Shown: positions 1-22,300, numbered from the stretch's first letter. The stretch: 64,000 nt of DNA from Clostridia bacterium (GCA_045643205.1 JAZUKI010000003.1:1-64000), one strand, 5' to 3'. The notes: a model not told the origin generated them from the letters alone. Made by a program: numbers and translations.

Positions 1-81
1 TGCAAGTGAAACAACAAGTGTGATAACTGCTGTGATAATCATTACGTTTTCTCTTTTAAAATTGATCTTTTGATTTAACAT
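1..81 (-). CDS. 5' end of an exported/membrane protein (partial, runs off the window)
   Basis: ATG at 81 preceded by GAGG; translates MLNQKINFKRENVMIITAVITLVVSLA, basic residues then a hydrophobic stretch (signal-peptide-like). Confidence 0.65.
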   Translation of the reverse strand, partial: MLNQKINFKRENVMIITAVITLVVSLA

Positions 82-357
82 TTTCTTTTCCTCTTTTAAT
101 TGATTTAGGTTTTGCAAAACCTATAAAACTTTTTTGTATTAGTTATCGCTAATACGCGTATATAATAAATAATATATATAATATTTTTTAGTTTTTTATT
201 GTTACATTTTAATATTGAAGTGTTTATTTTCTTTTAAATTATGACACGAATCTTTTTATTTCGTAGAATTACACGCCGTTATATTTTTTCAATAGTTATT
301 TCTATTTTGCACTTCTATTTTGTTTGCATTTTTAATTTTTTATAATTTTTCACACAT

Positions 358-416
358 AAAAAAAGAGAGGCTTTCTAAAATGAACATCTCTGCTCATTTC
401 TTTTTCCTCTCTTTTT
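358..416 (-). terminator. probable intrinsic terminator after the 1980-aa gene
   Basis: AAAAAGAGAGG...CCTCTCTTTTT inverted repeat with an internal AAATGA/TCATTT pair and a U-tract on the - strand. Confidence 0.55.
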
Positions 417-517
417 CTATAATGAAGTTCATCAATCTAATTAATAATTTTTATCTTATTGTCCTAATTGTTTTTTGCAATAATTTTACTTTTTAAATTG
501 TGTTTTACTTTATAATT

Positions 518-3500
518 TTAAATTATTGTTTTATTATTGAATGTCTTCTTAATTCCAAATGCTCCTGCTGCAATGATTCCTACTGCGATTAATGATATTA
601 ATATGATTAATGTGTAGTTTCTGTTTTCACCAGTTGGTGGCATTATTACTATTTTTTGTGCTGCATCAGCATCAATTTCTTTTACTTGTACTCTATCTGT
701 TTGGTCAAGATCATCTGTTGCTTCTGATGTATTCTTAGCCATCTTTTCATTTCCAACGACTGAGTAATTCATTCTTCTACCTTGTTCATTTGATGTTTCA
801 ATAATTTCTGTCATGTTGTTATATACTGAATTTGCTTTATTGTTTACACTTAATTGTGTAGATAGTCTTAATAATGTAGCTTTTGTGTTGTTTCCTTTAT
901 TAACTACTGTTGGTAATAAATCACCTTCAAGATCTTTTGTTGTTAATAAAGTATTATATGAAGCAATTCTTGTATAGTATTCTCTGTTTACTAAATCGTT
1001 TTCAATGTTTCCGCCATTATTAGAATTTGTTAAATCTTGTGATGTAACAACGTTCCAATTTGAGTCTTCTGATTGATTTGATGCTATGTAAGATATTTCG
1101 TTTGAAACATAGTCAACAATTTGTTTTGCATTTGTTTTTGCAATATTTTCTGTTGAGCTATTGTTTGTTTTACCTGTATAGTAGAATGCTAAATCTTTAT
1201 AATCAATTTCACCAATATTTTCTACAGTTATTCTATAGTCTGCTACTAGTGTTGATCCTTCTAAGATTTCATCATCAATTTGTGTTTGAATTATTTCAGG
1301 TGTTTTTCCTGGTGCATCATAACCGAATTGATATCCTGTTAATAATCTTCCGCTTCCTACATCTTTATAAACTCCAATATGTGGATTGTGTTTATTGAAT
1401 GTTAATCCGCTTACACCTTGATTTGTATTGAATAATACTTGACCGTCTGATAATTGAATTTTTATATTTGCTATTTCTTTATTGATTTTTAATTGTGCAA
1501 CTGGTCTTTGTTCTAGTCCTAAATCTATATCATCTAATGTGTAATGTTTTTGATTAATATTTGTTGGATCTACAACTGTTCTTGTTGTGTTCTTTTCAAC
1601 TTCTGTATTGATAATACCAGTTTGAGCAACTCCATATGTGTTAGTTTCTAATTCATCTATCATTCTTCTTTGTAATTCATCTGGTTGATATGTTGCTAAT
1701 TTATAGAATGATGCTAAAACTTCTGCTCTATTGTTTACTAATGTTTTTCCGTTATATCCTTTTGAGTAGTTGTTTGATTTTGTTCTATAGAATGCAACAT
1801 CCTTTGCATCAGAAACTCCTCTTTGTTCTTCGCTTCTAGCAATATCATAGTAGTACATTGATGGTTTGTTTGTTGAATTATTTAATGTTCCATCTTCTAA
1901 TGTGAAGTTTCTTGTATTGTATGCATCTGATGTAAATCCATAAATTGATTTATAAGAAATGCCATTTTGATCAACACCTGTTTGATATGTTGTTGATTTA
2001 TAATCTTGGCCGTTGTATGAAATATCGTTCATACCACTTATTTTACTTGTTCCTAATACTTTGTTTACATCATTTTCTGTTTTTACTAATACTGTTCTAT
2101 CTGTATCACCATAAATAAATCTTATATAGAAATCACCTGCTGGTACAGATTCAAATCCATAGTAACCTTTTGCATTATCGTAGTTTAATAATTGTTCTAC
2201 ATATAATATATTGTTTTGACTTGATGTACCGTTTTGTAAAATAATCTTTGAACATCCAATTCCTGAATAGTAAGATTTATCTTGTGGATTTGTTTGTGAT
2301 TGTGAAACATTAATTTTTTCACTTGCTCCTGCAAAATCGTAAACTACTGTTCCCCAAACTTTTTCACCAATATATCTTCCTGTTGATGTTCCATATTTAT
2401 CAACTTCTTGAACTGCTTCAACTAATTCAACTGTTACACCATCGATTTTTGTTTCATTGTTATCTTTACCATCTCCAACAACAGCTCTATCACTTTCTTT
2501 GTTTCTTGAATCTTCATAAACATATCCTGATAATGTTCTGTTGTCTTCTTTTCTTGTATCGATAATTATTTTGATGTTTGGTGCTTGGCTAGCATCTTTT
2601 TGTGTTCTATCATTTATTGGATCAATCTTGTCTCCACCAGCTTGTCTTATCATTCCGTTTGAATCTAAATCATATTGTGATAAGTTTCCTGGATTTGAGA
2701 TTGAATCTACTTTACCAGCTTTTGTTGATAAAGGTTCTGTTATTTCAGTGTGTGTTCCTGTTCCATCTGCATTTAAGTTTTCTGGAATTTTTGTTCCTAC
2801 TGAATAATATGTTTCATATTGATTAATTTCAGCAATGTTACGTTTTCCAATTGTTTCAATACCATTCTTTAATGATTGGTCTAACCAAACTTTTTGTGTT
2901 TCAGGATTGTTGTTAACTTTGAATGTAACAAATAAGTTTACGAATTGTCCTGGTTGTAAGTAATCTACAAATGTTCCATTGTTCTTAACTTTAATTCCTG
3001 ATAAGTATAGTTCAGAATAGTCATTGCTAATCTTTGTATTTCTTCCTGTTATTGATGTTGTTTTAATATTAATATCGTGTTGATTTTTTACGTTACCGTT
3101 AAAGTCTACTGATGATGCTGCATATGTGTTATGATGTGAACCAACTTTGTTTCCGTTTGCATCATATTCATCATATTCAACTGGTGTGTATGTATCTCCT
3201 GATAATACTCCGTCGAATGTGTACATCTTTGAATCATAATGATCAACTACTTCATCAATTTTTACATTGTATGCACCACTGTTTTGTAATTTGATTTTAT
3301 ATGTTACATATACTTGTAAATCTTTTGCTGATGAGTTGTTTCCATATGCATCATTTTCATTATATAAGTATTCAGATTTTCTAACTTCTCTAGTATATGC
3401 AAAATCATTTTGATATGTTTTTCCATCTAGAGCATAATCTGATGTTCTTATTGAAACATTGAATGAGTCTTCATCACCCATAACTATTAATTTTCCGTCA

Positions 3501-6460
3501 TCACCTGGTGTTTTATCTACATAGTATGTTCTTCCATCTTTAGCTACCATATATGTGTTATTCATTTCATTTACTGAATAACCTACTAAATATTGTGCTA
3601 ATGCTGAAACATTGTTTGCGCCATTGTAATTATTTAATAATGCTTGTAATTCAATTGCTCCATTGTCTCTCTTTTGATAGAAGTAATCTTGTGATTTACC
3701 GTTTACTTTAACTGTTACTTTGAATATATCTTTGATTAATGAAATTGAATTTTCATCTCTTTCATATAATCCAAAGTCTGTATTTCTAGCTTGGTCACAT
3801 GTTTTGTTATATAAGTATGTATAATTAATTCCACCAAAGTTAAATACTTTTGGTTGATCTGTTTGATATTCTGCACTGTCTTTATTTATATTCTTTATTA
3901 TAAATTGATCATAGAATGGTAATACTGTTTTATCAACATATGTGTATGCAATGTTTTGAATGTCTTGAATGTATGTTACAACATTTCTTGCTTCTGTTTC
4001 ATTTACACCTTTGCTTAACATCCATCCTAAAATTTGTGCATATGCACTATCATAATTTTTTGTTCGGTTCCAAACTATTTTATTGTCATCATTCTTTGGT
4101 TCTCCTCTTGTTGAACCGTCATCATATTTAGCATACTCTAAGAATTGATTCCATACATCTATAAATGTTAATGCACCTTTGTATGGATTTGTTTCATTTT
4201 TTCCTTCGCTGTATGCAATATATTCATGATTTGAATTTTCTAATCTTTGATATTTTGCATAAGCAATTCCTGAATGATTATCTTTTCTATAGTTTTCATT
4301 ATATGAACTAATAATGTCTAATATATCATTGAATGATGCTCTATCAATATCTTTTGCATTTGAGAAACCACCTGATAGGTCTTTCTTATAATATGTATAT
4401 TGATACATTTCACCATTATAGAAGAATCTTACAAAGTAATCTTTCATTGCATTTACTACTGGTTTACCATCACCTGTTATACCGTAGAATCTATATCTTC
4501 CATCTGCATCTGTTGTTGTTTCTGCTTTAAGTTTTGCATTTGCTCCGTTGCCTTCTAATTCAAATAATTGAACTAATATGCCTTTGAATGGTGATTCGCC
4601 GTTATCAAATCTTCCATTGAATCTCATTCCGTTTGTATCTGCACCTTTGATTACATTGTTTTCTATCCATACTAAACCGCCGATTTGCATGTTTACTCTT
4701 GCACCTGCTAATTTAATATTGATGAAATCTGTATGATAGAAATCATGTTCACTTGGAATAATTTCTACTATTGGTTGTATCCATTCAACTTCTTTTTCTT
4801 CAAATTTTACGTCTGTTGTTACTGAGTCTTTTTGTTCACGTTTTTCATTTACTATATGCCATGGTGTTTCTGTATGGTTCCATGATTCTTCGTATGTATA
4901 GTATGAAATGTATGTATATGTTGAACCATCTTCTCTAGTTCCTGTCGCATAGTGTGGTGTACCTTGTACCCATCTTTGAATTTGTACATCTTTTATTTCT
5001 TGTTCAGAATAGAAACCTTTAATTTCTGCATCTTTTTGACGTTGTACCATTTCCCTTGTAATTGTTTGTGTACCATATTTGTCGCTGTTAACTGTTCCAA
5101 TCATGTCTTCAGTTAATCTAAAGTTTGCAGTCCATTTAAATTTCATTACTAATGTACAACTTGCATCTATTTTTATCCATTCATCATATCCTACTGATGG
5201 AACACCATCTCCTACAATGTTTTTCATATCAACGATTGCACAGTGATAATGTCCAACTGCTGAATAATCATCTTCAATTGTTGCTTCAAGATCTAATTCT
5301 AAGTTTTCTTCTGATTCATGATGAATATGAATTTGTGGAACTTCAATTTTTAAATTTTTAATTACTAAAGCTTTTACAGCCCATACTTTAATTTCTCCGT
5401 TAAATGCATCTATGAAGTTAACTTTAATATTTGGATTTCCTATTTCATAAATTCCATCATTGTTTGGTTCATCATAGAATTTGATGTAGAATTCTTCACC
5501 TGTTCTGAAATCAGGGAATGCAATTTCTTCACCATTTGCATTTAAGTATTTTACGTTTTTGCCGTTTATTCCTTCAACTCCATCTGACCATGCAAATCTA
5601 GCTTTGTCGCCAATTTTTGTTGGGTTTGTTAATTCATCATATAATGTATTTTTTGCATTTGCAATTTTTTCGTCAGTTGGTAATAGTTCTGGATCATCCT
5701 TTGCCCAATCAGCAACTTCAATCATATCTGTAGTAATGTTTAATGAAATTTTGTAAGGTCCAACTGTATAACTTTGATCTGCTTGATTTACTAAAACATC
5801 TAATGAATCTTGATCATCTACAGCTGGTGTAACTGTGAAGTTTGTTTTCTTTTCTTGTAATGGCTTAGTTACGTAATAATAAACATTACCAAAATCAGTT
5901 GCTCTGTCTTCTATCTTATCATATTTAGCGATTCCAGATTTTTTTGCCTTGCCATAAGATGTTGAATTGTATTGTACATGTTTACCATATACATTTGATT
6001 CATTTCCCCATCTTTGTGATGCCCATAATACGTGTTGGAATGCTAATCTTGTTTGTTTAACTCCTGCATTATTACTTCTTGGATCAATTGGATATCCATC
6101 TGCTTCATTTGCAATTGAGTGTGATGAAACATAGTACATTGCATAACCAACTGATGGTTCAATTTCTCCTTTATGTTGTTCTTTTAATTCGAATTCAGAA
6201 TATTTAAATCCTGCATGTTCAGAATCTTCATCTTCGTCCTCTGGAACTCCTGATACATAGTCGTAATAATTTGTTGGTGTTGATAATTGATAACAGAACC
6301 AACCCCATAATGTATCAGTTGGGAAAGGTGTGTAATTATAAGGCATTCCGCCAGTTCTCAATTCCATGGCACAAACAGCAGAGGTTAATGAACATAGAAT
6401 AATTATTGATACTATTGGAGATACTATTTTCTTTAGTAATGAATTTTTCTTATAACTCAT
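518..6460 (-). CDS. giant wall-anchored surface adhesin, A-type (putative N-terminal thioester domain, SdrD-B-like and DUF11-like repeats)
   Basis: 1980 aa. Signal peptide; WFC56, FQHVLW, VGPY and WIQ562PIV motifs; SdrD-B-like starts (IGGLVWIE, LSGYVYED) with TTTDADGRYRF; C-terminal MPPTG, hydrophobic helix and KK tail. Paralog of 11357..19093. Confidence 0.8.
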   Translation of the reverse strand: MSYKKNSLLKKIVSPIVSIIILCSLTSAVCAMELRTGGMPYNYTPFPTDTLWGWFCYQLSTPTNYYDYVSGVPEDEDEDSEHAGFKYSEFELKEQHKGEIEPSVGYAMYYVSSHSIANEADGYPIDPRSNNAGVKQTRLAFQHVLWASQRWGNESNVYGKHVQYNSTSYGKAKKSGIAKYDKIEDRATDFGNVYYYVTKPLQEKKTNFTVTPAVDDQDSLDVLVNQADQSYTVGPYKISLNITTDMIEVADWAKDDPELLPTDEKIANAKNTLYDELTNPTKIGDKARFAWSDGVEGINGKNVKYLNANGEEIAFPDFRTGEEFYIKFYDEPNNDGIYEIGNPNIKVNFIDAFNGEIKVWAVKALVIKNLKIEVPQIHIHHESEENLELDLEATIEDDYSAVGHYHCAIVDMKNIVGDGVPSVGYDEWIKIDASCTLVMKFKWTANFRLTEDMIGTVNSDKYGTQTITREMVQRQKDAEIKGFYSEQEIKDVQIQRWVQGTPHYATGTREDGSTYTYISYYTYEESWNHTETPWHIVNEKREQKDSVTTDVKFEEKEVEWIQPIVEIIPSEHDFYHTDFINIKLAGARVNMQIGGLVWIENNVIKGADTNGMRFNGRFDNGESPFKGILVQLFELEGNGANAKLKAETTTDADGRYRFYGITGDGKPVVNAMKDYFVRFFYNGEMYQYTYYKKDLSGGFSNAKDIDRASFNDILDIISSYNENYRKDNHSGIAYAKYQRLENSNHEYIAYSEGKNETNPYKGALTFIDVWNQFLEYAKYDDGSTRGEPKNDDNKIVWNRTKNYDSAYAQILGWMLSKGVNETEARNVVTYIQDIQNIAYTYVDKTVLPFYDQFIIKNINKDSAEYQTDQPKVFNFGGINYTYLYNKTCDQARNTDFGLYERDENSISLIKDIFKVTVKVNGKSQDYFYQKRDNGAIELQALLNNYNGANNVSALAQYLVGYSVNEMNNTYMVAKDGRTYYVDKTPGDDGKLIVMGDEDSFNVSIRTSDYALDGKTYQNDFAYTREVRKSEYLYNENDAYGNNSSAKDLQVYVTYKIKLQNSGAYNVKIDEVVDHYDSKMYTFDGVLSGDTYTPVEYDEYDANGNKVGSHHNTYAASSVDFNGNVKNQHDINIKTTSITGRNTKISNDYSELYLSGIKVKNNGTFVDYLQPGQFVNLFVTFKVNNNPETQKVWLDQSLKNGIETIGKRNIAEINQYETYYSVGTKIPENLNADGTGTHTEITEPLSTKAGKVDSISNPGNLSQYDLDSNGMIRQAGGDKIDPINDRTQKDASQAPNIKIIIDTRKEDNRTLSGYVYEDSRNKESDRAVVGDGKDNNETKIDGVTVELVEAVQEVDKYGTSTGRYIGEKVWGTVVYDFAGASEKINVSQSQTNPQDKSYYSGIGCSKIILQNGTSSQNNILYVEQLLNYDNAKGYYGFESVPAGDFYIRFIYGDTDRTVLVKTENDVNKVLGTSKISGMNDISYNGQDYKSTTYQTGVDQNGISYKSIYGFTSDAYNTRNFTLEDGTLNNSTNKPSMYYYDIARSEEQRGVSDAKDVAFYRTKSNNYSKGYNGKTLVNNRAEVLASFYKLATYQPDELQRRMIDELETNTYGVAQTGIINTEVEKNTTRTVVDPTNINQKHYTLDDIDLGLEQRPVAQLKINKEIANIKIQLSDGQVLFNTNQGVSGLTFNKHNPHIGVYKDVGSGRLLTGYQFGYDAPGKTPEIIQTQIDDEILEGSTLVADYRITVENIGEIDYKDLAFYYTGKTNNSSTENIAKTNAKQIVDYVSNEISYIASNQSEDSNWNVVTSQDLTNSNNGGNIENDLVNREYYTRIASYNTLLTTKDLEGDLLPTVVNKGNNTKATLLRLSTQLSVNNKANSVYNNMTEIIETSNEQGRRMNYSVVGNEKMAKNTSEATDDLDQTDRVQVKEIDADAAQKIVIMPPTGENRNYTLIILISLIAVGIIAAGAFGIKKTFNNKTII

Positions 6461-6475
6461 TTTTTTCTCCCTTCA

Positions 6476-9400
6476 TTATAGAATATTAGTATAAGATTTG
6501 TTTATTACATTTTTCTTAGTTTCGAATACAGCTATTGCCGCAAGTGCAAGAATTGCTAATGTAATTCCGGTAACTGCTAATGCAGTTCTACCAGTAGCTA
6601 TTGCTAAAACAATTGCACCTGAAGATATGTCATTTTCGCCATCCATTTTATTGCTTGCTTTTGAGTTGATATCTTCTATTCCAAGTTCATTATATGAACT
6701 TGCAATTTCTGCGGTATTTCTAACTATTCCGGTGTTTTCATTAGTCATTTGTCTAGTTAATACTAGCTTTAACTCTTTTGTTTCTCCTGGATTGATAATT
6801 GTATTCGCAAGACTTGTTGTATAAACATTTCCATTTGATAAGTACCAATCTTTATTATCTTCTCCACTGAATCCCATTCCTTTAGGAATATAATCAACTA
6901 TTGATTTTGCATATCCTGGAATGTGACCTTGGTTTGTAACTAAAATTTTGTATTCAATAATAACTGTAATATCTTCAATATTACTGTTAGGTAATTCTAC
7001 TTTTGCTAGTTCTACATTGTCATAATCATAAATTGTAGGTTCTTTATTTCCTATTTTTACGATTGTAACTTTAGAAATTCTTTTATCTAATCTTAGATCG
7101 AATGTATTTCTTAATGATAGTCCTAAATCTACATTGTAAACATTTACATCTTTTAAATTTATTGTGTCGCATCCTGCAACTTCTTCTCCATTAAGTTTTG
7201 CTTGAACGAAGTCGTTGTTGTCAGAGTCTTCTACCTTTTCTAATCTGTATGGACCTGGTGCATATTCTTCAATGTTGTATTTAACAATTACGTTATATTC
7301 ACCTTTATTTAAATTTGTGAATGTATATTTTCCATCTTCGCCTGTTGTTAATCTAACTTCATTTCCTTTACTGTCTTTTGCAATGTTTTGTGTGTTAGCA
7401 TCAAACAACATAACTTCTAGATTTCCAATTGCTTTTTCAAATATATCTTGTTTTCCATTATTGTTTTCATCAAACCATACACGACCTGAGATTTTAAATG
7501 TTCCATCTGTAATTGGAGCATCTGGTCTATCTGGATTTTCAGGAGCTACTGTTGTTCCTGTTCCTGTAATTTTTAAAGTAATTGTATTAATATCAATTTC
7601 TTCATCTCCAATTGTTAAAATTGGTTTATGTTCTACAGAATGTGTAAATCCAGCTTGTTGACTATAAACTGCACATTTAATTGTGATTCTTGCTGTTCCT
7701 TTTGCATTTAGAACAAATTCATCATTGATGTATGATTTGTTTTTAGATGAAACTTCAACATTTCCTGTGATTGAAAAATCTCTTAAGTAAACAATATCTT
7801 TAAAATCATCTTTTATTTTTATAACTACATCTTCATCTTTGTCGTTTTTAATATCAACATAGAATTCAATTGAGTCTGTATCTAAAACATTATTTTCATC
7901 AACATTTACTGATTGATTTGCTGTAATGTATTTCTTTGCTATGTTACCATTAACTGTATTATCTGGAGTTCTAATTTCTCCTTTTGATTGATCACTTGTT
8001 GCAGTTGCGTATGCTGTTAATGTTGGATAATCTTCAATTACTGATGCGTAAATAATTATTCTTTTTGGATTTTTTCTAACGCTATCAAATTTTACTGAAA
8101 TAGTATTTGATGCTTTATCATAATCATATTCATTTGAATTGTATTCTGTTCCTTTTGGTAAATGTACTTTTACATTTACATTTGTTTGTTCTCTACTGTT
8201 AGGGCTCTTTACTTCAATTGAATATGTAACTACGCTTCCTTTTGGGTGTGTGCTATTTGGAGCAACTTGATTTTTTAATTGTAAAATTAATGAACCAAGA
8301 ATTCTTTTAACTGTAAATTCGTTTGTTGCATTTGCTTCCATTTCATCTGCTGAAACTGTGGCTTTTAATTTCACTTCATCTGTATCTTTATCTTTTGGTA
8401 ATTCTTTTAATTCTGCTTTGATTTCAACAGTTTCCACTGAGTTAGCACCAATCTTAGAATATGTTGCTGTTGTTTTACCATTTAATAATGATAAACCTTC
8501 TGGCAATTCAATATTTAATTTTGCATTTTTCATAACAATGTTTTTTGTGTTTTTAATATTGATTTTGTATGTTATTTTTTTGCCTTCTTCGTTTTCACTG
8601 TTTTGATTTATTTCTTTTCCAGTTTCATCAAATGCTTTGATTTCTACTTCTAGTGCAGGTTTGTCTTCTGTTCTTGCACCTACGATTTTTGATTCTACTA
8701 GGTCTTGTTTAATTCCTTCTGTTGAATCATTATCAAAGTAAACTCCATAAATTGCATTTAATGATTGTTCAAATTCTATCTTTTCTGGAACATCAACTTC
8801 ATAGTTGAATTCAATTTTTGCTTTGTCTTCTACATTTTTGTTAGAAACAATTTTATATGATTTTGTGTTTTCTGTGATTTCTGTTTTCCAACCTTCGCCA
8901 TTAACTTTTTCTTCAGCATTATCACTGTAATAAATTGTTGCATCTTCAAGTCCATTTACTGAAATTGCTTTTGCTAATTTTGTATCTATTGTTGTTGCTA
9001 AATCTTTTCCTGTTAATGTTTTATTTCCTTTGAAAGGAATTCTACCAACAATAGTAAATCCTGTTGCTTCTTTTCCAAGGTTGCTTACTATTGATCCGCT
9101 AAAATATAATTTTTTAGATTCTGTATTTGCATGTATTCTAAAGTCTGTTGCGTCATTTGCCATTGCTGTTGTTTTGTTTGTTCCATCTGAAATTGTATTT
9201 GATAATACAAATGCTGAAGGAGCAACTATTTTTACAACTTGTTCAAATGCATTTGTTTCACCTGTTGCAGAGTTTGTATATAGCATTTTAACTTTTTCAT
9301 TACTTGATGTTGCCATGTTTTCTAAGCCTATATTTGTTTCAACTCTAACTAATAATCCATCTGTTGTTGCTGATTTGCTATAGTCTGTTTGTTGTCCTTT

Positions 9401-11158
9401 TAAGTCAACATTGATTGTGTCTCCAACAACTGAAGTTTTTCCTGTGATTATTTCATCTTCATATAAGATTTCTGCTTTCTTAATTTCGATGTTATTTACT
9501 TTGCTTGGTAATTCAATTGAAATTTTAGGATCTGTATAAAGTGCATCTGTGATGTCTTTTGTTTTTAATACAACGTTGAATACTACATCTTCATTTTTAG
9601 CAATTGTTGATAATGTATTTTGGCTCATATCTAAAAATGCTTTTGATGATGGTTCTGTTAATTTTATTTTTGTGATCATGCTTCCTTCTGAAACAATGTT
9701 TTCATCTTTGTATCCTTTGAAATCAATTTTTGAATTTATAGTTTTTAAACTTTTTATTTGTTGTCTGTTTAAGTTTGTTTTTTTAATTTCTTTTTCAACT
9801 TTAATTTCAATATTTCCTGGATTAACTGGTTGTGTTGTTTCAAAGCTTAATCTTGTTTCATTAGTTTCAACTTCTGTATTGTTAATTGTTAATGTTGCTA
9901 TTTCTGTTCCGTCTGATTTTTTAACAATTATCTTTCCTTCATCACCTAATGTGTTTTTTATACTATCTGAATCGATTTTGATTTTTTTGTTTTTAATTGC
10001 TACGTTGTTTAAAATCTCTTCATTTTCTGTTACTAATTCATTGGTTGTTTCTGTTAAAACAATTTTATTTGTTAAATCTTGTAGTCCTATATTTATTTTA
10101 TATGAAACTTCAAAAGGTGTTACAAATTCTTTTTTGCTATTAATGTTTGTGTACATGTAACCTTTGTTTATTTCACTTGGTGTTGTTGCTGATATTTCAA
10201 GAATATGTCCTACTTCTGAATCAATTTTAAATTCTTCTGATTTGCTTGCTGTGATTTCTTCGTTTCTTATTGTTTTGATTTTGTTTGAAGCTTGAACATT
10301 TAATGTTTTATCATCTGTTTGTGTTTCGTATACAAAGTTTGCTACGAAGTCTTCGTTTGAATTCCATTCAAGTGAATTATTATCATTTGTTTTATTTATA
10401 ATAAGTTTTTCATTTTCGTTTTTGTATGTAATGTTTTTACCTGTTGCTGAAACAACTGTTGGTAATTGTCCGTTTATTTTTGGAATATCAATTGTGATTT
10501 CTTTTGAGGCAGCTGGTAAAACATTGTTTGCAATACCATTGTTTACTTTGATACTAACTATTGTTCTGTTGTTTTCGTATTTTAAATATCTAAGAAGTTC
10601 TAATTTAAGATCTGCTTCTGATTTTGTATTCCATTTAATTTGTTCTTTTAATTCTTTTTTAATTTCTTTTTCGTTGCCGTCTTTATTTACATATGTTGCT
10701 GTTAAAACAATAGAAGAAATTTTATCAAAATTTTCGTATTTGGTAATATCTTCTTTTATTGCTTTAATTTTAACTGAGGCTTTTGTTTCGTTGCCTGCAT
10801 CAACATTGTTAAAATTAATTGTGTTTCCCCTTATTGAATTAATTGCTGTTTGTTTTTCTTCAAGTTCATTTAATAATTCATAGTTAGCATCTTTTGCTTC
10901 TACAACTATGTTTTTTAAATAACCTGTTTTTTCAACTTTAATGTCAAAATCAATTGTTGGATTTTGAGTTAAATCAGCGTCCATTTCATATGAGTCTGTG
11001 CCATTTAAAGTTGCATTAAACTTAACATTTTCTTCGTTTGTTGCCATGTTTTGTTTTATTCCTTCTGCAGCTATAGATACTGCTGGCATTAATTCAATAC
11101 CTAAAAAAGAAATAATAGCTAAAATAGCAATAATCTTGTTTTTTAATTTAGAATACAT
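6476..11158 (-). CDS. giant surface protein, B-type (Ig-like/DUF11-like repeats, SdrD-B-like domain, C-terminal anchor)
   Basis: 1560 aa. Signal peptide; ISGRVWFDENNNGKQD...TTGEDGKYTFTNL; DLRLDK...YKILVTNQG...NTAEI; ends AIATG, TM helix and basic tail; AAGGAGG RBS. Paralog of 19338..24206. Confidence 0.8.
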   Translation of the reverse strand: MYSKLKNKIIAILAIISFLGIELMPAVSIAAEGIKQNMATNEENVKFNATLNGTDSYEMDADLTQNPTIDFDIKVEKTGYLKNIVVEAKDANYELLNELEEKQTAINSIRGNTINFNNVDAGNETKASVKIKAIKEDITKYENFDKISSIVLTATYVNKDGNEKEIKKELKEQIKWNTKSEADLKLELLRYLKYENNRTIVSIKVNNGIANNVLPAASKEITIDIPKINGQLPTVVSATGKNITYKNENEKLIINKTNDNNSLEWNSNEDFVANFVYETQTDDKTLNVQASNKIKTIRNEEITASKSEEFKIDSEVGHILEISATTPSEINKGYMYTNINSKKEFVTPFEVSYKINIGLQDLTNKIVLTETTNELVTENEEILNNVAIKNKKIKIDSDSIKNTLGDEGKIIVKKSDGTEIATLTINNTEVETNETRLSFETTQPVNPGNIEIKVEKEIKKTNLNRQQIKSLKTINSKIDFKGYKDENIVSEGSMITKIKLTEPSSKAFLDMSQNTLSTIAKNEDVVFNVVLKTKDITDALYTDPKISIELPSKVNNIEIKKAEILYEDEIITGKTSVVGDTINVDLKGQQTDYSKSATTDGLLVRVETNIGLENMATSSNEKVKMLYTNSATGETNAFEQVVKIVAPSAFVLSNTISDGTNKTTAMANDATDFRIHANTESKKLYFSGSIVSNLGKEATGFTIVGRIPFKGNKTLTGKDLATTIDTKLAKAISVNGLEDATIYYSDNAEEKVNGEGWKTEITENTKSYKIVSNKNVEDKAKIEFNYEVDVPEKIEFEQSLNAIYGVYFDNDSTEGIKQDLVESKIVGARTEDKPALEVEIKAFDETGKEINQNSENEEGKKITYKINIKNTKNIVMKNAKLNIELPEGLSLLNGKTTATYSKIGANSVETVEIKAELKELPKDKDTDEVKLKATVSADEMEANATNEFTVKRILGSLILQLKNQVAPNSTHPKGSVVTYSIEVKSPNSREQTNVNVKVHLPKGTEYNSNEYDYDKASNTISVKFDSVRKNPKRIIIYASVIEDYPTLTAYATATSDQSKGEIRTPDNTVNGNIAKKYITANQSVNVDENNVLDTDSIEFYVDIKNDKDEDVVIKIKDDFKDIVYLRDFSITGNVEVSSKNKSYINDEFVLNAKGTARITIKCAVYSQQAGFTHSVEHKPILTIGDEEIDINTITLKITGTGTTVAPENPDRPDAPITDGTFKISGRVWFDENNNGKQDIFEKAIGNLEVMLFDANTQNIAKDSKGNEVRLTTGEDGKYTFTNLNKGEYNVIVKYNIEEYAPGPYRLEKVEDSDNNDFVQAKLNGEEVAGCDTINLKDVNVYNVDLGLSLRNTFDLRLDKRISKVTIVKIGNKEPTIYDYDNVELAKVELPNSNIEDITVIIEYKILVTNQGHIPGYAKSIVDYIPKGMGFSGEDNKDWYLSNGNVYTTSLANTIINPGETKELKLVLTRQMTNENTGIVRNTAEIASSYNELGIEDINSKASNKMDGENDISSGAIVLAIATGRTALAVTGITLAILALAAIAVFETKKNVINKSYTNIL

Positions 11159-11201
11159 AAAATCTTGTCCTCCTTAGTAATAATCACAATATAACACTTC
11201 T

Positions 11202-11230
11202 ATTATACCAGCTTTTACCATTTTTTTCAA
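11202..11230 (-). promoter_or_regulatory. sigma-A promoter of the 1560-aa/1980-aa gene pair
   Basis: TTGAAA-17 bp-TATAAT with TGn extended -10. Confidence 0.7.
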
Positions 11231-11301
11231 GTTTTTGGGGCTTTTTTTGTGTTTTTACAGCTTTTTTATTTTTTTTACTCGATTTTTTCAAAAAAATAGC
11301 T

Positions 11302-11348
11302 AAAAAAAGAGATAAAATCTTGGTTTTCCGCGATTTTATCTCTTTTTT
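11302..11348 (-). terminator. intrinsic terminator after the 2578-aa gene
   Basis: AAAAAAAGAGATAAAATC...GATTTTATCTCTTTTTT perfect stem with U-tract. Confidence 0.8.
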
Positions 11349-11356
11349 ATTTTAGT

Positions 11357-14300
11357 TTATTTATCATAAACCTTTTTCTTAATTATTACTGCACCTACTA
11401 ATACGATAATTGTTGCAATTGTTGTTGTAATAATTGTTAGTATCTTATTTCTGTATTCTGGACTACCTGTTGGAGGTAAGATTTGAATTTGTTGAGCACT
11501 GTCTGCATCAATTTCTTTTGGTTGTACTATCTTAGATGATGAATATGCATGGTGTTCTTGATCGCCTCTTGTTCCGCCACCGTCATTGATATCTTGGTTA
11601 GCCATTTCTTGGTTTCCAGAAATAGAGAATTGCATTCTTCTACCATATGAGTTTGAAGTTTCAATTACTTCAGCTAGGTTGTTATATGTTAAGTCTTCAC
11701 TATTTCCACTTGATGTTATTGATGTTGTAAGTATTAATGTTGTGTTATCAATATTGTGTCCTTCTAGTGATTTGTTGTTCTTTACATATAATGTTGGTAA
11801 TAAATTGTCATTCATATCCTTTGTAACAACGATTGTATTGTATGTAGATACTTCGTTTGCATATGTTCTTGTTACATAGTCTCTATTAATCTTATCATAT
11901 AAATTACCAACTGCATTTCTAGGAGTAATCTTGTTAATGAATCCATTGTTTGTACTTGGTACATCTTTGAATTCTGCATTAAATTCTGTATCAGTAATTT
12001 GAGCAATTACATTGTTTTTGAATGAATCTTCTGTAATTCTAGATTGCATTATTTCACTTGCTTTATATACATCCCAATGTGCATCTGAGTTTTGTTTTGC
12101 TGAATCATATGATGCGTCGTTTGGAACATAATCAATTACTCTTACAACTTTTGTTCTAACTGGTTCTGTAGCTGCTGCTGACTTTTTACCAAAGTAGTAG
12201 AAATCTCTATCTTGATAATCAATTTCACCAACGTTTTCTACTTGTAAGTGGTATGTTACGTTTATTGTAGCGCCGTTCATAATCTCATCATCCATTTCTG
12301 CTTTGATTAATTCTGGTTTAGCTTGTGTATCTAATGTTACTCTTACACTTTCAAGTGTAGGTCCATTTCCTTTATTACTATATGTAATTTCATGTTGACT
12401 ATGATCTTTAAACATTAAGTTCTTCATAGAAGTGTTAGCGTTGAACAAGGTTTGTCCGTCTGCTAATTTAATTTCAACATTTGATACTTCTTTAGTTAAT
12501 TTAACTTGTGCTTTTGGTCTTTCTACTAATCCTAAATCAACATTTTTTAAATGGTTTTCGTGTGTAGTATTTCCATATACAGTGTGTAATGATGTTAAAT
12601 TATCGCTATTTCCTGTTTCTGTATTGTTGTTTTTATCATTGATGCCTTCATATTCATTATTCATTGAAATAATACCTGTTTGTGCAACCATGTATGTGTT
12701 CTCGATTAATTCATTAATTAATGCTATTTGGGCTTTTGAGTTTGGTGTTCCATCTTTATTTTCTTGAGATGTTACTTTTTCAAATGAGTCTAATACTTCT
12801 GCTCTATAATTTAATAATGTTTTTTCACTTTCTGTTACACCTGTTGTATAACCTTGTGCGTAATCAATTCCACGTTGTCTGTATCCATATAAATCATTTG
12901 CATCTGATAGTCCTGGTAAGTTTTGTGTTGCCACTCTATCGTATCTCCACATAGTGTCATATGCATTTGAAATGTTTGTTCTTGGATTTGCCCCTTGAAC
13001 ATTTCTTGATGCATTCAAATCTCCACTATTGTTGATTGGTTGTCCAGCATAGTAAATTATACCGCTATTATATAATTGTTCTTTTGATCTTAATGTGTTG
13101 TTATTGTAATTATATGTACTTGCATAATCTTGTTTTGCTGTGTCTAGATAACCTGCTACTTGTTGATTGTTCTTCATTTTGTAGCTTATTGCATTTTGAT
13201 TTACTTGTTTATTTGTACTTACGTTTCTTTGATATACAGTTGATTTATAATCTTGTCCATTGTATGATTTTGCATTTAAACCTGCAGCTCCAACTAGTGT
13301 ATTTACTTCGTTTACGCCACTTGTTAATACTGTTCTAGTTGTATCACCATATATGAATCTTATTATGAAATCACCACTTGGTAATCCTGCGAAACAATAC
13401 TTACCATCTTCTTGTGGCTCATCAAATTTTGTTGGGTCACTATAAATTTGTGCTAAGTTACTTGTTGCGTTAAGGATGTACTTTGTTCCTTTGCCTGAAT
13501 AATATTGTGCACCTTGGTTTTGGCTTCCTGCTTTTAATTGATATTGATTATTTTTGTCTGAAGCTAATCCTGTATATTCGCATTCATCCCAAACTTTTTC
13601 GCCAATATATTGACCTGTAAATGTTCCGTCATAATCTACATCTTGTATTAATTCTACTAATTGTACTGTTACACCATTGATTTTCTTTTCGTTGTTGCTT
13701 CTTTCGCCATCGCCAATTGGTGAACCATCGCTGTTTACGTTTCTATCATCTTCAAATACATATCCAGAAATCTTTCTTACTTCATCATTGTCTAAGATTA
13801 ATCTTATTGATGGTGCTTTATCCATGTCTGGCTCAATTTGTGGTAGAGCTTCTTCGTTAGGCTCTCCTTTGTTTAGTTTTGGTCCATTTGGATTTCTTGT
13901 AATCTTTCTATATGAATTGTCTTTGAATTGCATTGACTTGTATTTACCGCCTTCAGTGTAAACAACTTCTACGTTACTGCTTCTGAAGTTTCCTGGATCA
14001 GAATATACATCTACCATACCTGCATTGAACATCTCAGGATTTGATTGATATGTTTCTTCTCCAACTTGTTTACCTTTTGCATCTAAGTATATTGCTTTTC
14101 CGCCTGTATACTTAACCATTCCTATTCCATATGGTGTATAGAATACTTTTTCATCTGCCATAGTAGCATCAGCTGGAATGTTTGCACTGTAATATGAAGA
14201 GTAACTATTTATTTCTGCAAAATTGTTTTTACCTATTGTAGGTAATTGATCTGCAAAGTCTCTTGTAATTTGGTCTAATTTTATTTGATTTGCAAATGTT

Positions 14301-17300
14301 TTGATGTTCTTATCTATTGAATTATTCTTTACTCTAAATGTTACGAATATTACTGTACCTTGTGATTTTGATAATGTGTATGAACATTGTTCATCTCCAT
14401 TTGCATCTTTTGTTATTACAGGAATTCCTTCTTCTGCTCCTGTTCCTCTAATATATAGAGTCTTTAGATGATATGGTTGTTTGTCATTATCTGCATCTGT
14501 ATTAGGTATGTAGAACTCTTCTTTTACGGCTAGGCCGTTTCCGTTTTTATCGTGTGTATATGCAGAACTTTCATAAATTCCGATATATTCTTTATCTGGA
14601 TTGTGTCCTAATGTATCTCTTAAGTTTGTTGCGTATGTGTATTTGCTTCTTTCTATGTTGCCATCTGTGTTTTCTGTATGTGTTTCTATTTGATATTTTC
14701 CGTTTGCATCAATTATTAAGTTACCTTTTGCATCTTTTACGCCATCAAATTCTAGATTGTCTGCATCATAGTAGTCTGCTATTTCGTTGATTTTTACTGC
14801 GTATGGAGATGTGTTATGGATATGAATTTTATATGTTAAGTATGCTTTGATATTCTTTGAATATTGTCCATTTCCATAAGCTATGTTTTCATCATATAAG
14901 TAATCTGATTTTCTAATCTCTCTATTATATGGTGTACCACCATCTAATGTTTTGTTTATTTTTTCTACATAGTCTGGTTCGAAGTTGTAATTATCGCTAT
15001 CAACAATTTTGTCTTTGTCTGCATAGTTATAAACTTCTTTCTTTCCGTTTACTACTAATGTAGCTTTGTATAAATCTTTTGTAAGTTCTACTTCATTATT
15101 TTCTCTTTGATATGTACCAAAGTTCCAGCAATGACGCAAATCAAATTCTTTGTTATATAAGTTAATGTATACTTCACGTGGTGGTTCATAATAGTGATCT
15201 ATATCATGAACTTCTTCATGTGCTTCTACTTCCCATACTAGATACCACTCTGGGTATGTTGTTGTTTCTGGTCCTGGAGGATTAGGCGTATCAGGTTCAC
15301 CTGTGCCTGGATTATCTTCAGGTGGTGGAGGTGGATAAACAGGGATATCATCTGGCCCAGCAGCTATTTTTATTGGTTCACTTATGTCTGAATTTATATT
15401 TAGAGATGCCAATTTAATATCTTTACTTTCGCCTGTTTTTGGATATTCTATATGAACATATTTTTCACCTTTATATTCATATTCATATATTGTAGTTCCT
15501 TCTTCAAATTTTGTTGTAGGTTGTAAACCTAATTTTTTAATAATTGCTTTCAATGCTTCTGGAATATCTGTAGGGTATATAACATTTGGATTTGGATTTT
15601 CTACCCATCTTTCTTTTAAGTTTAATCTCCATTTTACGTATTTATCCATATATGTTTTTCCCATATCTTTTAAGCAGAATGTTGCTTGTTCTGGGAATGT
15701 TTTTAAATTGGTTTCTCCCATATTTCTTCCATATACAGTTAAGTCTGGTGTGTATGGAACTGATGCTTCTATCATGCAATCTTGAAGATAATGTTTAACA
15801 CTATCACTTAATCCTGAATAATTATAATCTACTGGATATTGTGCTACTTCTTGTTCAGGTAATTTTGCTGGATATTCCCACTGCTTATCTATATCGCTTG
15901 ATACAATTTCACCATTATTTTCATTAATTGGTTCATCTAATTTATTGCCTGGATTATGGTAGAATTGATAATCAATTGATTCTTTAATTAATTCAGCATG
16001 AGTATTGTTTTTTATAAATAAATTATATTGTTCTTCAAAAGTATCTAAATTTGCATTGAAGTTTGGATTGTCTATTGCTTCTTGAACAACATGTTTTAAT
16101 CCATATGCTCTTCCTGTATATGAATAATTTTGATTTAATGTTCCATTGCAGCCTGCATATCTTTGTCCTGCATATGTATAGTTGTTTTCACTTGAGTAAA
16201 TGTCTGTAAAACGAGTATTAAATTCTGTTCTATGTTCATCTACTGCTTTTGATGTGTAATCTTTATATTCTCCGTATGAAGAATCCATTCCAGTATTATA
16301 TAATGTTTGTGTATATAATTGTCCATTATATACAAATTTTACAAAATACTTTCTTAATGGATTTATTAATGGTGTATTATCTGCTATCTTGCCATAGAAT
16401 CTATAGTCACCATTTTTATCTGTGAATGTACTTGTTATATACGTTCCTACTTTATCAATATCGTCATCTGTAATAAATAGATTTCTTTGTGGTTCTTTAT
16501 AATTAATCTTACATTCATAAAGATCAACTTTCATTCCTTGGAAACTCTCTTCATTAAGAATGTCTCTCCAGCCATCCACGCTGTTTTGTCCTAAGCCTTT
16601 GACAGCTATTGATTCTTTCCAGACGTTTCCGCCAAATGCTTCTGCTATTTTTGTTTTTGGCATTGCAAATTTTTCAATTTCTATTTTTGTACCAAATTTA
16701 TATATGTCTGTATCATCTTCTGTTTCGAGCGTTACAAAAGACTGCATATATGCTTTTAATTTTGTTATATTAGCTTGTAACTTTTCTGCTTGATGACGTT
16801 CTGGAGTGCTAGCTCTTCCAAATGTTTCATCATATGGAAACCAAACTGTATATTCTGATATATCACCACCACCTAGTTTATATTCAAAATCATGTTCTCC
16901 TGCTTGTCCTAAGCTTTCCCATAATTCTAATCTTTTTCCATAAGATGCATATTCTAAGGCAAGTTGCCAACCTGTGTTTTGAGTTCTGTATCTAAATCCA
17001 TATGTACTAGCCGGATCATACTCAGTTCCATCCTCTTTTTTATATGAGTGATTTGTATTTCCACCATAAATTTCTACAATTTCCCATGAAGCATTATCTA
17101 AACTATCATGTGTTACATCTTCATATCTTGTATATGGTTCAGAAGTTGTAGGTTTACTTGGTTTTGTATATGTATTGGTTCCTGCATTAGCAGGCGAATT
17201 ACCTGTATTAATTTTACCATTTTTTAATACAAAGTTGTTTACTTGGTCTGCTGAAAGAGACGCATATCTATATCTATATACTGTTTGATTTTGTGTCCAA

Positions 17301-19093: not shown

Positions 19094-19258
19094 AATATTT
19101 TCCCCTTTTTTACATAATTCTTTTCATGCTATATTATAAATATATATAAATACAATCATACTTATTTTTTATGTTTAATAATATTAATTATGTAATATTA
19201 CTTTAATAATTTTGCTTCTTTAGCTTTATTTCGTAGGGGTAAGTCATTATATAGGAAT

Positions 19259-19310
19259 AAAAAATCCTTTCACCGCTAAACTTTTTCGTTTAACAATGAA
19301 AGGATTTTTT
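19259..19310 (-). terminator. intrinsic terminator after the 1622-aa gene
   Basis: AAAAAATCCTTTCA...TGAAAGGATTTTTT inverted repeat. Confidence 0.75.
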
Positions 19311-19337
19311 GTTTTTATACTATTTAAAAATTTATTC

Positions 19338-22300
19338 TTATACTATTTTATTTTTTCTTTTATTTTTAATAAATACTATTATAACTGCTCCAAAAGATAA
19401 TGCACCAAAGATTATTCCTGCCACTCTAATTATTTGTCCTCCAGTTGAAAGTGCAATTATAACTAATGCTTCTGAATAATCGTTTTCACTTGAATCTTTG
19501 TTTCCTGCTTTTGAATTAATATCTTCTATTCCCTGAATATTATATATTTCTCCAATCTCTGCAGAATTTTTAATAATTCCAGTTTGTTCAGCAGTTATTT
19601 CTTTTCTTAATTTTAATTTCAATTCTTTTTGTGTTTGTCCTTTTATTAATGTGTTTGTTAAAGTACTATTGTATGCACATCCATCTGCTTTAACATACCA
19701 TCCTGGATTGTCTTCTTGATTAAAAGTCATTCCTTTTGGTATATAGTCAACTACTGATTTTGCATATCCATCAACATACCCAACATTTTTTACCACCAAA
19801 GAATATTCAACTACTAAGTAATATTTAATACCTTTTTCATTTGAAATTTCTACTTTTGCAATATCGCTATTATAATTATAATTTGCATTTTTTCCATTTG
19901 ATGTTGATACTGAAACACTAGTTACATTTTTTTCTAATGCCATATCAAAAGTATTTCTTGGTATTAATGAAATATCAATTGCATAAATATTTGAATTTTG
20001 TACAAGTATATTATCAGTTGCTCCAACTGTTTCATTTTCAAAAACAGTTTCTATGAAATCATTATTTAAGTCATCTGCGACATTCCTATTTCTATAATCA
20101 CCGCATCCATATTTTTCAGAATCATAATATGCAATAACAACATAACTTCCAATTGGAATGTTAGTGAAAATATATTCTCCATTATTATTAGTTGTTGTTA
20201 TTATTTCTTTACCCGAATCATCAACTACTACTTTATTTGTTTTGTTATCAACTAATTTCATTCTAATATTTGAAATTTTTTGTTCTGTATCTTCTCTTTT
20301 TCCATTATTATTTGCATCTAACCAAGCTGTTCCTGATATATTATATTTTCCATCAATGATTGGATCATTGATATTTACAAACTCACCTGTTCCAGTAATG
20401 TTTATAGTTATTGGATTTATTGCTATTTTTACCCCATTACATGAAGCTTCTGGTTCATGTGTTAAATTAATTTTTTCACCTTTTGCTTGTGTTTTTATTC
20501 CACATTTAATTCTTACTTCTACATAATCTTCTGCATTTAACTCAGCTACATAATCAATTAAATTTACATTTTGATGTTTTGAAACTTCTTTGTTGTTTAT
20601 TAAAATTTTATATTCTTTTATTATAAAATTATCATTTAATCTATCATAGATTTTTACTCTTCTTAAAGCATCCCAATGATTTTTTATTATAATATTAAAA
20701 TCAAATGTATCTGTGTCTTTTAATTGGTTTGATGGTGTACTTATTGTATGTGATACTTCAAAATTTCTAGCTGCACCTGCAACTGTAATTTTTATATTAT
20801 TAAAATCTTCTATCTTTTCATTTTCATATACACTTGCTTTTAATTCAGGTGTGCCATATTTAGCTGTTTTTAAATTTAATCTAATTTCATTTGATAAATA
20901 ATATGCTTTTAGTTCATCAATCTTAATTGAGTATTCTCTTGTATTTGAATTGTATGAATATGTTAATCCATTTCCATTTAGTTTATCATTTTCTTCTGTA
21001 TCATATTCTACCTCTGCAGGTAATTTGTCTTTGATTTCAAGATTTTTCTTATCTACTCCTGTTAAGTTACGTATAAATAAAATTTGTTGGAATTTATCAC
21101 CTATTCCAATTTCACCTTGTTCATCTGGTGAATAGGTAATACATGATACTTGTCTCATCTTGACTGGATTCTTATATTCTTCGGCTTTAAATTCCACTTC
21201 ATCATCTTCATATATATTAACATTGAATTTGGTATATATTGCATCATTTTCTGGATTGTCGTCTTCTAAATTAATTGAATTTTCTTCATAATCTCTAATA
21301 GCATTTACCATTAAGTATTGAGTAATAGTTTTTGTTTCTGATGCTTTTATCAAAGTAATTTCTTCTGTAATATCTTCCATGTCATAATAATGATTTATCT
21401 TATCTTTTGTTACTTCAATATGTAAATAGTGATCTGTTAATTCTGTAACAGCTTTAACATTACTAATATCTCTATTAGAAGTATTTGTTATTTCAATGTT
21501 TAATTTTACATATGCGCCTTCATCAATTTCTTCGTTGTTTTTTATTTCTTTATTTTTAACCATATCTATTGTTTTAATTTTTACTGAGAAATCTGATTCT
21601 GGCTTTGTTGATAATCCTACTGGTTTAGCTTCTATTGAAGAATATTTTTCTCCATTTATTGCATTATTATCATATAGTAAAGTAAATGTTTCTTTTGCAT
21701 GTTCATTATATGTTATATCACTTGGTGTACTTACTCTGTAACTAAATTCTTTTTTATCTCCATTTCCAAATGAATCTAAGAATTCAATTTTATATGATTT
21801 TGCATCTTCTGTTTTTGTTTCTGACCAATTATTTGAATTAATAGGTTCATTTGCATTTTGGCTGTAATATGCTTTATATGTTCCGTTTGGATTTTCTTCT
21901 GTTTTTTCGCTTTCGCCTTTAACTGTTATTTCTCCAACAACTTTTGTATCGAATGTTCCATTTAATTGTGTTCCTAAATAAGAATTAGAATCTTTAGATG
22001 GGAAGTTTCCAACTATTATTGCATTGTTTACATCAGTTCCTTGGTTGTTAACAATTGTTCCACAAACATCTGCATATTTTTCATTGCTGTATAGTGGTAA
22101 TGTTATATCTTCTACTTCTTCTTCAATTGTTGATCTTGTTTCTTTAAAATAATTTTTATCGCCTGTTCCATTGTTGTTTGTTGGACTTACTACATCCATT
22201 TTATTTTGAATAATAAATTCTGATGGTGCAACTACTTTAAACGCTTTATTCAATGTTGTTAATAATCCTGTGTTTTCATTATAAACCTCAAGTTTCATTG

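Follow-up and report, generated by a model that had tools for sequence, protein, structure and literature searches.

Thioester domains (TEDs) let bacteria bond covalently to their targets and also serve as protein-engineering tools. Here we describe a candidate TED at the N-terminus of a 1980-residue wall-anchored surface protein, which is encoded on the minus strand of a 64,000-nucleotide stretch of DNA from a Clostridia bacterium (GCA_045643205.1, JAZUKI010000003.1:1-64000; hereafter, the window). Our analysis of predicted structures indicates that residues 32-590 are probably a class-II-type TED, though a highly divergent one, carried on the tip of a sortase-anchored stalk; by analogy with solved TEDs, a thioester between Cys56 and Gln562 is more likely than not.

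TEDs have been described by three motifs (Walden 2015, PMC4450167; Miller 2018, PMC6194298). The thioester Cys lies on strand C within the sequence pattern [YFL]C-Phi-zeta, a helical TQxxPhiW motif contributes a Gln and a Trp that touch only the Cys backbone and are dispensable (this Gln is not the bonded one), and a third motif surrounds the bonded Gln. In class I TEDs, about 10 residues separate helix 3 from strand P and the bonded Gln follows soon after the helix (PMC6194298); examples are SfbI (5A0L, Cys109-Gln261), PnTIE (5A0N, Cys94-Gln247) and CpTIE (5A0G, Cys138-Gln267; all PMC4450167), as well as Cpa/Spy0125 (2XI9, Cys426-Gln575; Walden 2014, PMC4282584). Class II TEDs carry a ~75-residue beta-sandwich between helix 3 and strand P, with a P-Q hairpin that loops back into the head (Miller 2018, PMC6194298), as in BaTIE of B. 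anthracis (6FWV, Cys71-Gln266), SaTIE of S. aureus (6FX6, Cys296-Gln467) and EfmTIE86 of E. faecium (6FWY, Cys88-Gln292; all PMC6194298). Known Cys-Gln spans thus cover 129-204 residues (PMC4450167, PMC6194298, PMC4282584). Within the full-text literature that we searched, in which journal coverage was partial, we found neither a TED with a domain-sized insertion nor a third TED class.

Candidate thioester residues and their conservation

Translation bore out each of the motifs that an earlier, sequence-only reading of the window had assigned to particular codons of this gene (WFC56YQ, FQ142HVLW, TVGPY and WIQ562PIV; Table 1), and the interval that it had marked out, 4775..6295, runs exactly from Cys56 to Gln562 because codons 6293..6295 and 4775..4777 translate as those residues. 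That reading had also proposed a Cys-Gln span of ~500 residues ahead of the first SdrD-B-like domain; the span is 506 residues, with GGLVW, the opening of that domain, at residue 594 and WIQPIV 29 residues ahead of it. Its account of the TED family (motifs, bonded Gln and size) agrees with PMC4450167 and PMC6194298, and the conservation in homologues on which it had staked the pair was found for both residues, to a lesser degree for Gln562, as set out below.

Compared with the described motifs, F-C56-Y-Q fits [YFL]C-Phi-zeta and F-Q142-H-V-L-W fits TQxxPhiW, here opening with Phe rather than the Thr of class II TEDs. I-Q562-P-I-V fits the Gln motif, with the departure that Pro follows the Gln at the zeta position. 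Cys56 is the sole Cys of the head lobe and sandwich in the mature protein (Cys list) and follows the probable point of signal-peptide cleavage (..SAVCA/MEL, judged by eye) by 25 residues. The architecture is of the TIE type, with a signal peptide, an N-terminal TED-like head, an SdrD-B-like stalk and a C-terminal PPTG, membrane span and KK; five sortase (PF04203) matches over the cut-off are present in the same 1.0-Mb genome.

Five homologues came from a word-based search, four of them with identities of 82-85% and the other with 31%, while an exhaustive representative search recovered 34 proteins at E <= 0.001; two close relatives aside, the best stretches of the latter fell almost entirely within query 32-342 (protein 63-373), mostly 100-335. 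We aligned the 1980-residue protein, a paralogue from the window, the five word-search proteins and 33 representative-search proteins (alignment A1, 40 rows). Gln142, Gly234, Pro235 and Phe324 are invariant in A1 (40/40), and position 56 is Cys in 35 rows, Gly in three, Ser in one and a gap in one; in the three related Gly56 rows, the helix-motif Trp is replaced by Tyr as well. Since the motifs are conserved across the family, they are more than chance occurrences. The column of Gln562 is gapped in 24 of the 40 rows, making A1 unreliable there, and we therefore made a separate alignment of the 110 residues that precede the SdrD-like start. The SdrD_B domain begins between residues about 390 and 1170 in many of the 33 scanned homologues, and the separate alignment held 23 sequences with a recognisable SdrD-like start from 37 considered (three near-identical homologues were excluded). 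A Gln preceded by a hydrophobic residue occupies the Gln562 column in 18 of these 23.

Predicted fold, proposed inserted domain and candidate bonded Gln

An AlphaFold2 model of residues 32-600 built with A1 (m61364fb94879) had a predicted local distance difference test score (pLDDT) of 78.5 and a predicted template modelling score (pTM) of 0.74; its helices, sandwich and C-terminal strands were confident and its N-terminal strands and several loops weak. The Cys56 region forms a short strand at model residues 23-25, and FQHVLW lies in helix 101-115 (DSSP). When this model was compared with the PDB by Foldseek, the only matches at E <= 0.001 were chains A and B of BaTIE 6fwv (E 2.2e-5 and 3.0e-5; prob 0.87 and 0.84), followed by the EfmTIE86 TED 6fwy (E 8e-3), with all others at E > 0.016. 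VIA-align, applied to the Foldseek candidates, aligned the two class II TEDs over 228 and 227 residues (model 1 to 560-561; Z 6.5 and 5.8). Residues 1-405 of a compact homologue, P0023, gave a second model (pLDDT 77.9), for which chains of 6fwy and 6fwv again supplied the top four Foldseek matches (E 1.6e-4 to 7.3e-4, prob 0.84-0.96; next E 0.081), and all three class II entries could be aligned to it by VIA-align over 202-226 residues.

A VIA-align search of the residues 32-600 model against 48,161 chains, independent of Foldseek, returned a similar picture. First came 6fwv_B, with 216 residues aligned over model 11..558 at Z 6.4 and a root-mean-square deviation (rmsd) of 9.2, and second 6fwy_A, again with 216 aligned, at Z 5.9 and an rmsd of 11.1; seven TED entries stood among the best 50 rows (6fwv, 6fwy, 5dcq, 5a0n, 5a0g, 6fx6 and 2xi9), counting 5dcq (FNE), which we take to be a TED. 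By structure comparison, the predicted models match the TED fold (beta-barrel plus three-helix bundle), at modest scores. The class I TEDs in this set share the same three motifs, and their alignments covered 130-144 residues of the head lobe (rmsd 4.1-5.3 A, Z only 3.9-4.6), running from model 1-11 to 537-540; class II alignments covered 216-228 residues and ended at model 557-561. Because the class I alignments span model 1-11 to 537-539, the strand after residue 530 lies, in the model, in the same lobe as the Cys56 strand.

The modelled arrangement is that of class II. A sandwich, to which sandwich-type chains align at model 175..560, is placed between helix 3 and strands P/Q, and a hairpin would lead back to the head, so that the Gln strand is predicted to return to the head as in BaTIE, EfmTIE86 and SaTIE. 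Like those proteins, which are the best structural matches of both models, the candidate sits N-terminally on a sortase-anchored stalk. The two differ in size: the Cys-Gln span is 171-204 residues in class II TEDs compared with 506 here (710 in the paralogue), and the present protein has a helical insert in its sandwich and about 170-190 extra residues just before the Gln. The difference from class I is larger still, with about 340 residues in place of about 10 between helix 3 and strand P.

Homologues locate the extra residues. The inserted domain (about 374-545) is found only in close homologues, the best stretches of distant ones ending at query 217-342, and the interval from the end of the conserved sandwich strand (..FNG / ..F-x-G) to the Gln is 206 residues here, 37 in P0023 and about 17 in a PF08341-type protein of another genome. 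These intervals point to an insertion of ~170-190 residues just before the Gln strand; the bond-forming residues would be ~500 positions apart because an extra domain is inserted between them. The sequence-only reading had proposed that the TED is class-II-like and that a large insertion directly precedes the thioester Gln; this proposal is supported in silico, by the class II Foldseek matches of two models, by the ends of the class I alignments and by the interval of 206 versus 37 residues.

The solved structures also bear on which Gln would be bonded. In the class I alignments, model 11..539 pairs with chain 62..255 of PnTIE 5a0n, model 11..539 with chain 119..275 of CpTIE 5a0g and model 1..537 with chain 390..581 of Cpa 2xi9; counting back 8, 8 and 6 residues to the thioester Gln (Gln247, Gln267 and Gln575) leads each time to model residue 531, which is Gln562, on an extrapolation from range ends that assumes both a gap-free stretch over the last 6-8 residues and PDB entry numbering equal to that of the papers. 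The P0023 model behaves similarly: back-counts from 5a0g (37..370 to 119..275) and 5a0l (32..369 to 87..268, Gln261) both give residue 362, one residue off its Gln361, from which the closest further Gln residues lie at 333 and 389; counted forward, the Cys would fall at 56 and 54, the actual one being Cys53. The adjacency of Cys56 and Gln562 would follow from this equivalence to solved TEDs. A two-chain complex prediction of head 32-206 with hairpin 540-576, run without controls, scored 0.01 against a mark of 0.32, an outcome that speaks neither for nor against the pairing.

If the domain is a TED, Cys56 might instead be bonded to Gln142 (FQHVLW) or Gln226 (V-N-Q before TVGPY), which would give an ordinary span of 86-170 residues. 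Both are better conserved than Gln562 (Gln142 in 40/40 rows of A1, Gln226 in 33/40), and a bonded Gln closely after helix 3 is what class I TEDs have (PMC6194298). However, in all solved TEDs the TQxxPhiW Gln does no more than hydrogen-bond to the backbone of the Cys, and the thioester can do without it (PMC4450167, PMC6194298), on which ground we rejected Gln142 and its 86-residue span. Gln226 was rejected for want of covariation with the Cys: five Cys-bearing rows (P0011, P0012, P0018, P0020 and P0028) have Arg or Lys in its place, and the Cys-less ones keep it; all four Cys-less rows retain both Gln142 and Gln226. The class I alignments, moreover, reach model 537-540 and not the region around 195. 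We consider either partner highly improbable.

With Gln562 as the partner, the domain could operate as follows. Cys56 would sit on an N-terminal strand of the head lobe, with the FQHVLW helix packed beneath that strand in the manner of the TQxxPhiW helix of known TEDs. The chain would then exit the head, form the beta-sandwich with its TVGPY and FYIKF strands, pass through the beta-rich domain of about 170-190 residues and come back as a hairpin, the second strand of which would bring Gln562 beside Cys56. By analogy with SfbI and Cpa, the S-gamma of Cys56 would attack the side-chain amide of Gln562 on folding, with loss of ammonia, leaving a buried thioester; a ligand amine could later attack this thioester, so that an isopeptide bond would tie Gln562 covalently to its target, and adhesion would be covalent. 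The inserted domain would lie beside the reactive site, where it probably adds or tunes ligand binding, though this is speculation.

Sequence distance and relatives lacking the Cys

Several results from sequence and structure comparison speak against a TED. Residues 32-600 and the N-terminus of the paralogue matched no Pfam family even at E <= 10; residues 32-600 gave no match to PF08341 (TED), PF20610 (TED_2) or PF26764 (TEDa_beta; the last not confirmed present in the Pfam copy searched), and the N-terminal 600 residues are without a family name in Pfam and NCBIfam alike, even at E <= 10, the sole Pfam matches of the 1980-residue protein being weak ones to CarboxypepD_reg/TTR-like at residues 621-670. 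No TED family was found in the 33 homologues at E <= 0.001, the A1 profile retrieved no chain from PDB sequences at E <= 1, and residues 32-600 have no detectable sequence similarity to class II TEDs. Against 12 PF08341-type domains from 10 genomes, hhalign produced a colinear alignment at E 0.011 and a probability of 4%, and a family hidden Markov model (HMM) reached a best whole-sequence E of 1.3 and a best single-domain E of 0.021. On the structural side, the two models draw on shallow alignments (39-40 rows) that are almost identical, class II alignments have an rmsd of 8-11 A, and the structural Z of 3.9-6.5 lies in a range that the tool calls common for unrelated folds, below its safe level. 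The strands around Cys56 are of low confidence (block pLDDT 50, 52, 75, 52 and 46, with Cys56 in the block at 75), as are residues 333-360 of the P0023 model, just before its Gln (pLDDT < 50).

These results would fit a domain that is no TED at all, in which short motifs and a common helix-plus-sandwich arrangement belong to an unrelated adhesin head of unknown type, the more so as cupredoxin-like and Ig-like chains score as high as TEDs over the sandwich. Those chains, however, align to model 175..560 over 59-126 sandwich residues, whereas TED rows cover 130-216 residues and span both ends of the model, and TEDs are the sole Foldseek matches below E 0.001 for two models. The three motifs also occur in the right order and on the right secondary-structure elements, and the nearest clusters among feature neighbours in the ESM Atlas carry TEDa_beta, TED_2 and TED (score 0.86, 179/256 features), a result that we treat as a lead only. 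We judge an unrelated head to be rather improbable, and a divergent class-II-type TED remains our preferred reading.

A more serious alternative is a TED-derived fold without the thioester, acting as a non-covalent binding head in which the thiol of Cys56 is free or structural. The fold does occur without the bond, given that some relatives lack the Cys and that the only PF08341-matching protein of this genome has Ser: Gly or Ser replaces the Cys in four of the 40 family rows, that PF08341-matching protein reads YSLN for YCLN, and three of the other 11 PF08341-type domains compared have Ala or Ser at the site. The aligned Gln is missing in five of the 23 sequences (P0017, P0019, P0021, P0023 and P0036), and the geometry around Cys56 is poorly modelled. 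On the other side, a sole Cys kept in 35 of 40 rows and the mapping of Gln562 onto the thioester Gln of three solved TEDs favour a bond. The P0023 model puts at the corresponding position a Gln that lies 13 residues further along. In P0019, where Gly stands for the Cys, the strand also reads IEPYIEV, compared with IQPIVEI in the present protein; as aligned, Cys and Gln are lost together in this one lineage, and P0019 is the one full-length Cys-less member with a readable return strand. Such a co-loss is what a functional pair predicts. We regard a fold without the bond as unlikely here.

P0019 belongs to a sub-lineage with P0015 and P0026 that has Gly for the Cys (IYG[MT]) and QSVIY for QxxxW, and whose members carry long helical repeat-rich insertions after the sandwich, up to about 800 residues in P0019 itself.

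The PF08341-matching protein of this genome (locus L001, G000:C6:46784-50167 on contig C6; 33.1 bits) is an open reading frame (ORF) of 1250 residues. It shares with the family both a Y-x-[IV]-G-P-Y-K strand motif (YLIGPYK, compared with TVGPYK) and a helix motif, VQQAAIW, and the shared strand motif links TVGPY to a Pfam-recognised TED protein. It differs in matching PF08341, which the 1980-residue protein does not, and in having Ser for the Cys; the family HMM, which was also run against all ORFs of at least 300 residues in the genome, did not score it significantly (E 1.3). This protein may be a degenerate TED or a TED with different chemistry. PF08341 loci from three genomes of one genus (L008, L010 and L011) likewise have Ala or Ser for the Cys (YALN / YSLN) and keep TQQAIW, and Cys-less TED-like domains therefore recur in the phylum.

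Over 401 genomes of the phylum, including one other genome of the same order, a family profile built from a smaller alignment (A2) found the family in the window's own genome only; since no other sampled genome has it, the family appears rare and is known mostly from metagenome proteins. PF20610 exceeded its cut-off in none of 301 phylum genomes.

Paralogue, surface-protein cluster and significance

The window encodes a paralogue of 2578 residues with the same motif set (Table 1). A second BLASTP segment pairs its YMQSFV with WIQPIV, and the interval from its Cys74 to Gln784 is 710 residues.

Table 1 Features of the 1980-residue protein, its paralogue and the surrounding gene cluster in the window
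Feature	Position	Strand	Basis
Whole gene, encoding a signal peptide, a TED-like head, a long stalk that has SdrD-B/CnaB-like stretches and a sorting signal with PPTG	518..6460	-	ORF list, translation
Signal peptide, residues 1-31 (MSYKKNSLLKK, hydrophobic core, VCA)	6368..6460	-	read by eye from sequence
N-terminal portion of the head lobe (residues 32-206), with short strands, one of them bearing Cys56, an acidic low-confidence loop, a beta-hairpin and three main helices	5843..6367	-	DSSP, pLDDT, VIA-align
WFCYQ, residues 54-58, [YFL]C-Phi-zeta motif with proposed thioester Cys	6287..6301	-	codon translation
FQHVLW, residues 141-146, TQxxPhiW helix motif with Phe for Thr	6023..6040	-	codon translation
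Predicted class-II-type beta-sandwich, residues 207-373, with YTVGPY, FYIKF and helical insert (about 251-283)	5342..5842	-	DSSP, VIA-align; approximate boundaries
YTVGPY, residues 231-236	5753..5770	-	codon translation
FYIKF sandwich strand	5477..5491	-	sequence
Inserted beta-rich domain, about residues 374-545, with Cys407 and Cys435	4826..5341	-	homologue comparison; mostly strands, pLDDT 56-93
Return segment, residues 546-589: strand 546-554, short helix, WIQPIV, strands 564-569 and 575-583	4694..4825	-	DSSP, pLDDT 73-92
WIQPIV, residues 560-565	4766..4783	-	codon translation
GGLVW, opening of first SdrD-B-like stalk domain	4667..4681	-	sequence; same ..NMQIGGxVW.. start at PF17210 matches of homologues
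C-terminal sorting signal made up of PPTG (629..640), a hydrophobic span and a KK tail	518..640	-	sequence
Paralogue, 2578 residues	11357..19093	-	translation, BLASTP
Paralogue FFC74NK	18866..18880	-	translation
Paralogue FQRLIW	18668..18685	-	translation
Paralogue YIYGPF	18422..18439	-	translation
Paralogue YMQ784SFV	16733..16750	-	translation
Paralogue GGNVW	16619..16633	-	translation
Paralogue PPTG	11465..11476	-	translation
Surface protein P0003, 1560 residues	6476..11158	-	
Cluster of four surface-protein genes	518..24206	-	

Both proteins belong to a head-to-tail cluster of four giant surface-protein genes (1980, 1560, 2578 and 1622 residues), directly downstream of minC, a gene for a PBP2-type transpeptidase and mreD/mreC/mreB. 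A TED-like head is found in these two of the four; the other two match DUF11, SdrD_B and pAdhesive_11. The 1560-residue protein (P0003) has no PPTG motif; its end, ..AIATGRTALAVTGITLAILALAAIAVFETKKN.., may represent either a variant sorting signal or simply a membrane anchor. The cluster occupies about 24 kb of a genome of 1,008,328 bases in 10 contigs that was scored 100% complete; the G+C content of the window is about 28%.

We regard the candidate as a new and Pfam-invisible variant of the TED, notable for its domain-sized insertion and its span of 506 residues (710 in the paralogue). More tentatively, with our doubts slightly outweighing our confidence, we propose that the two proteins represent a third structural class of TED, in which a whole extra domain (about 170-190 residues, and roughly 400 in the paralogue) is nested in the return hairpin and thioesters form over 506 and 710 positions. 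If so, these would be the longest-range Cys-Gln thioesters known, and the nested domain could be a built-in co-receptor module that chooses the target or gates access to the thioester. If our main reading holds, the TED fold would tolerate an insertion the size of a domain just where the Gln strand threads its way back, which would bear on slipknot folding and on the grafting of specificity modules beside a reactive bond. Since current family models fail to detect any of this branch, it would be overlooked when covalent adhesins are surveyed; a 1.0-Mb genome with two TED heads among four tandem giant surface proteins would, if our reading is right, be one that has escaped them.

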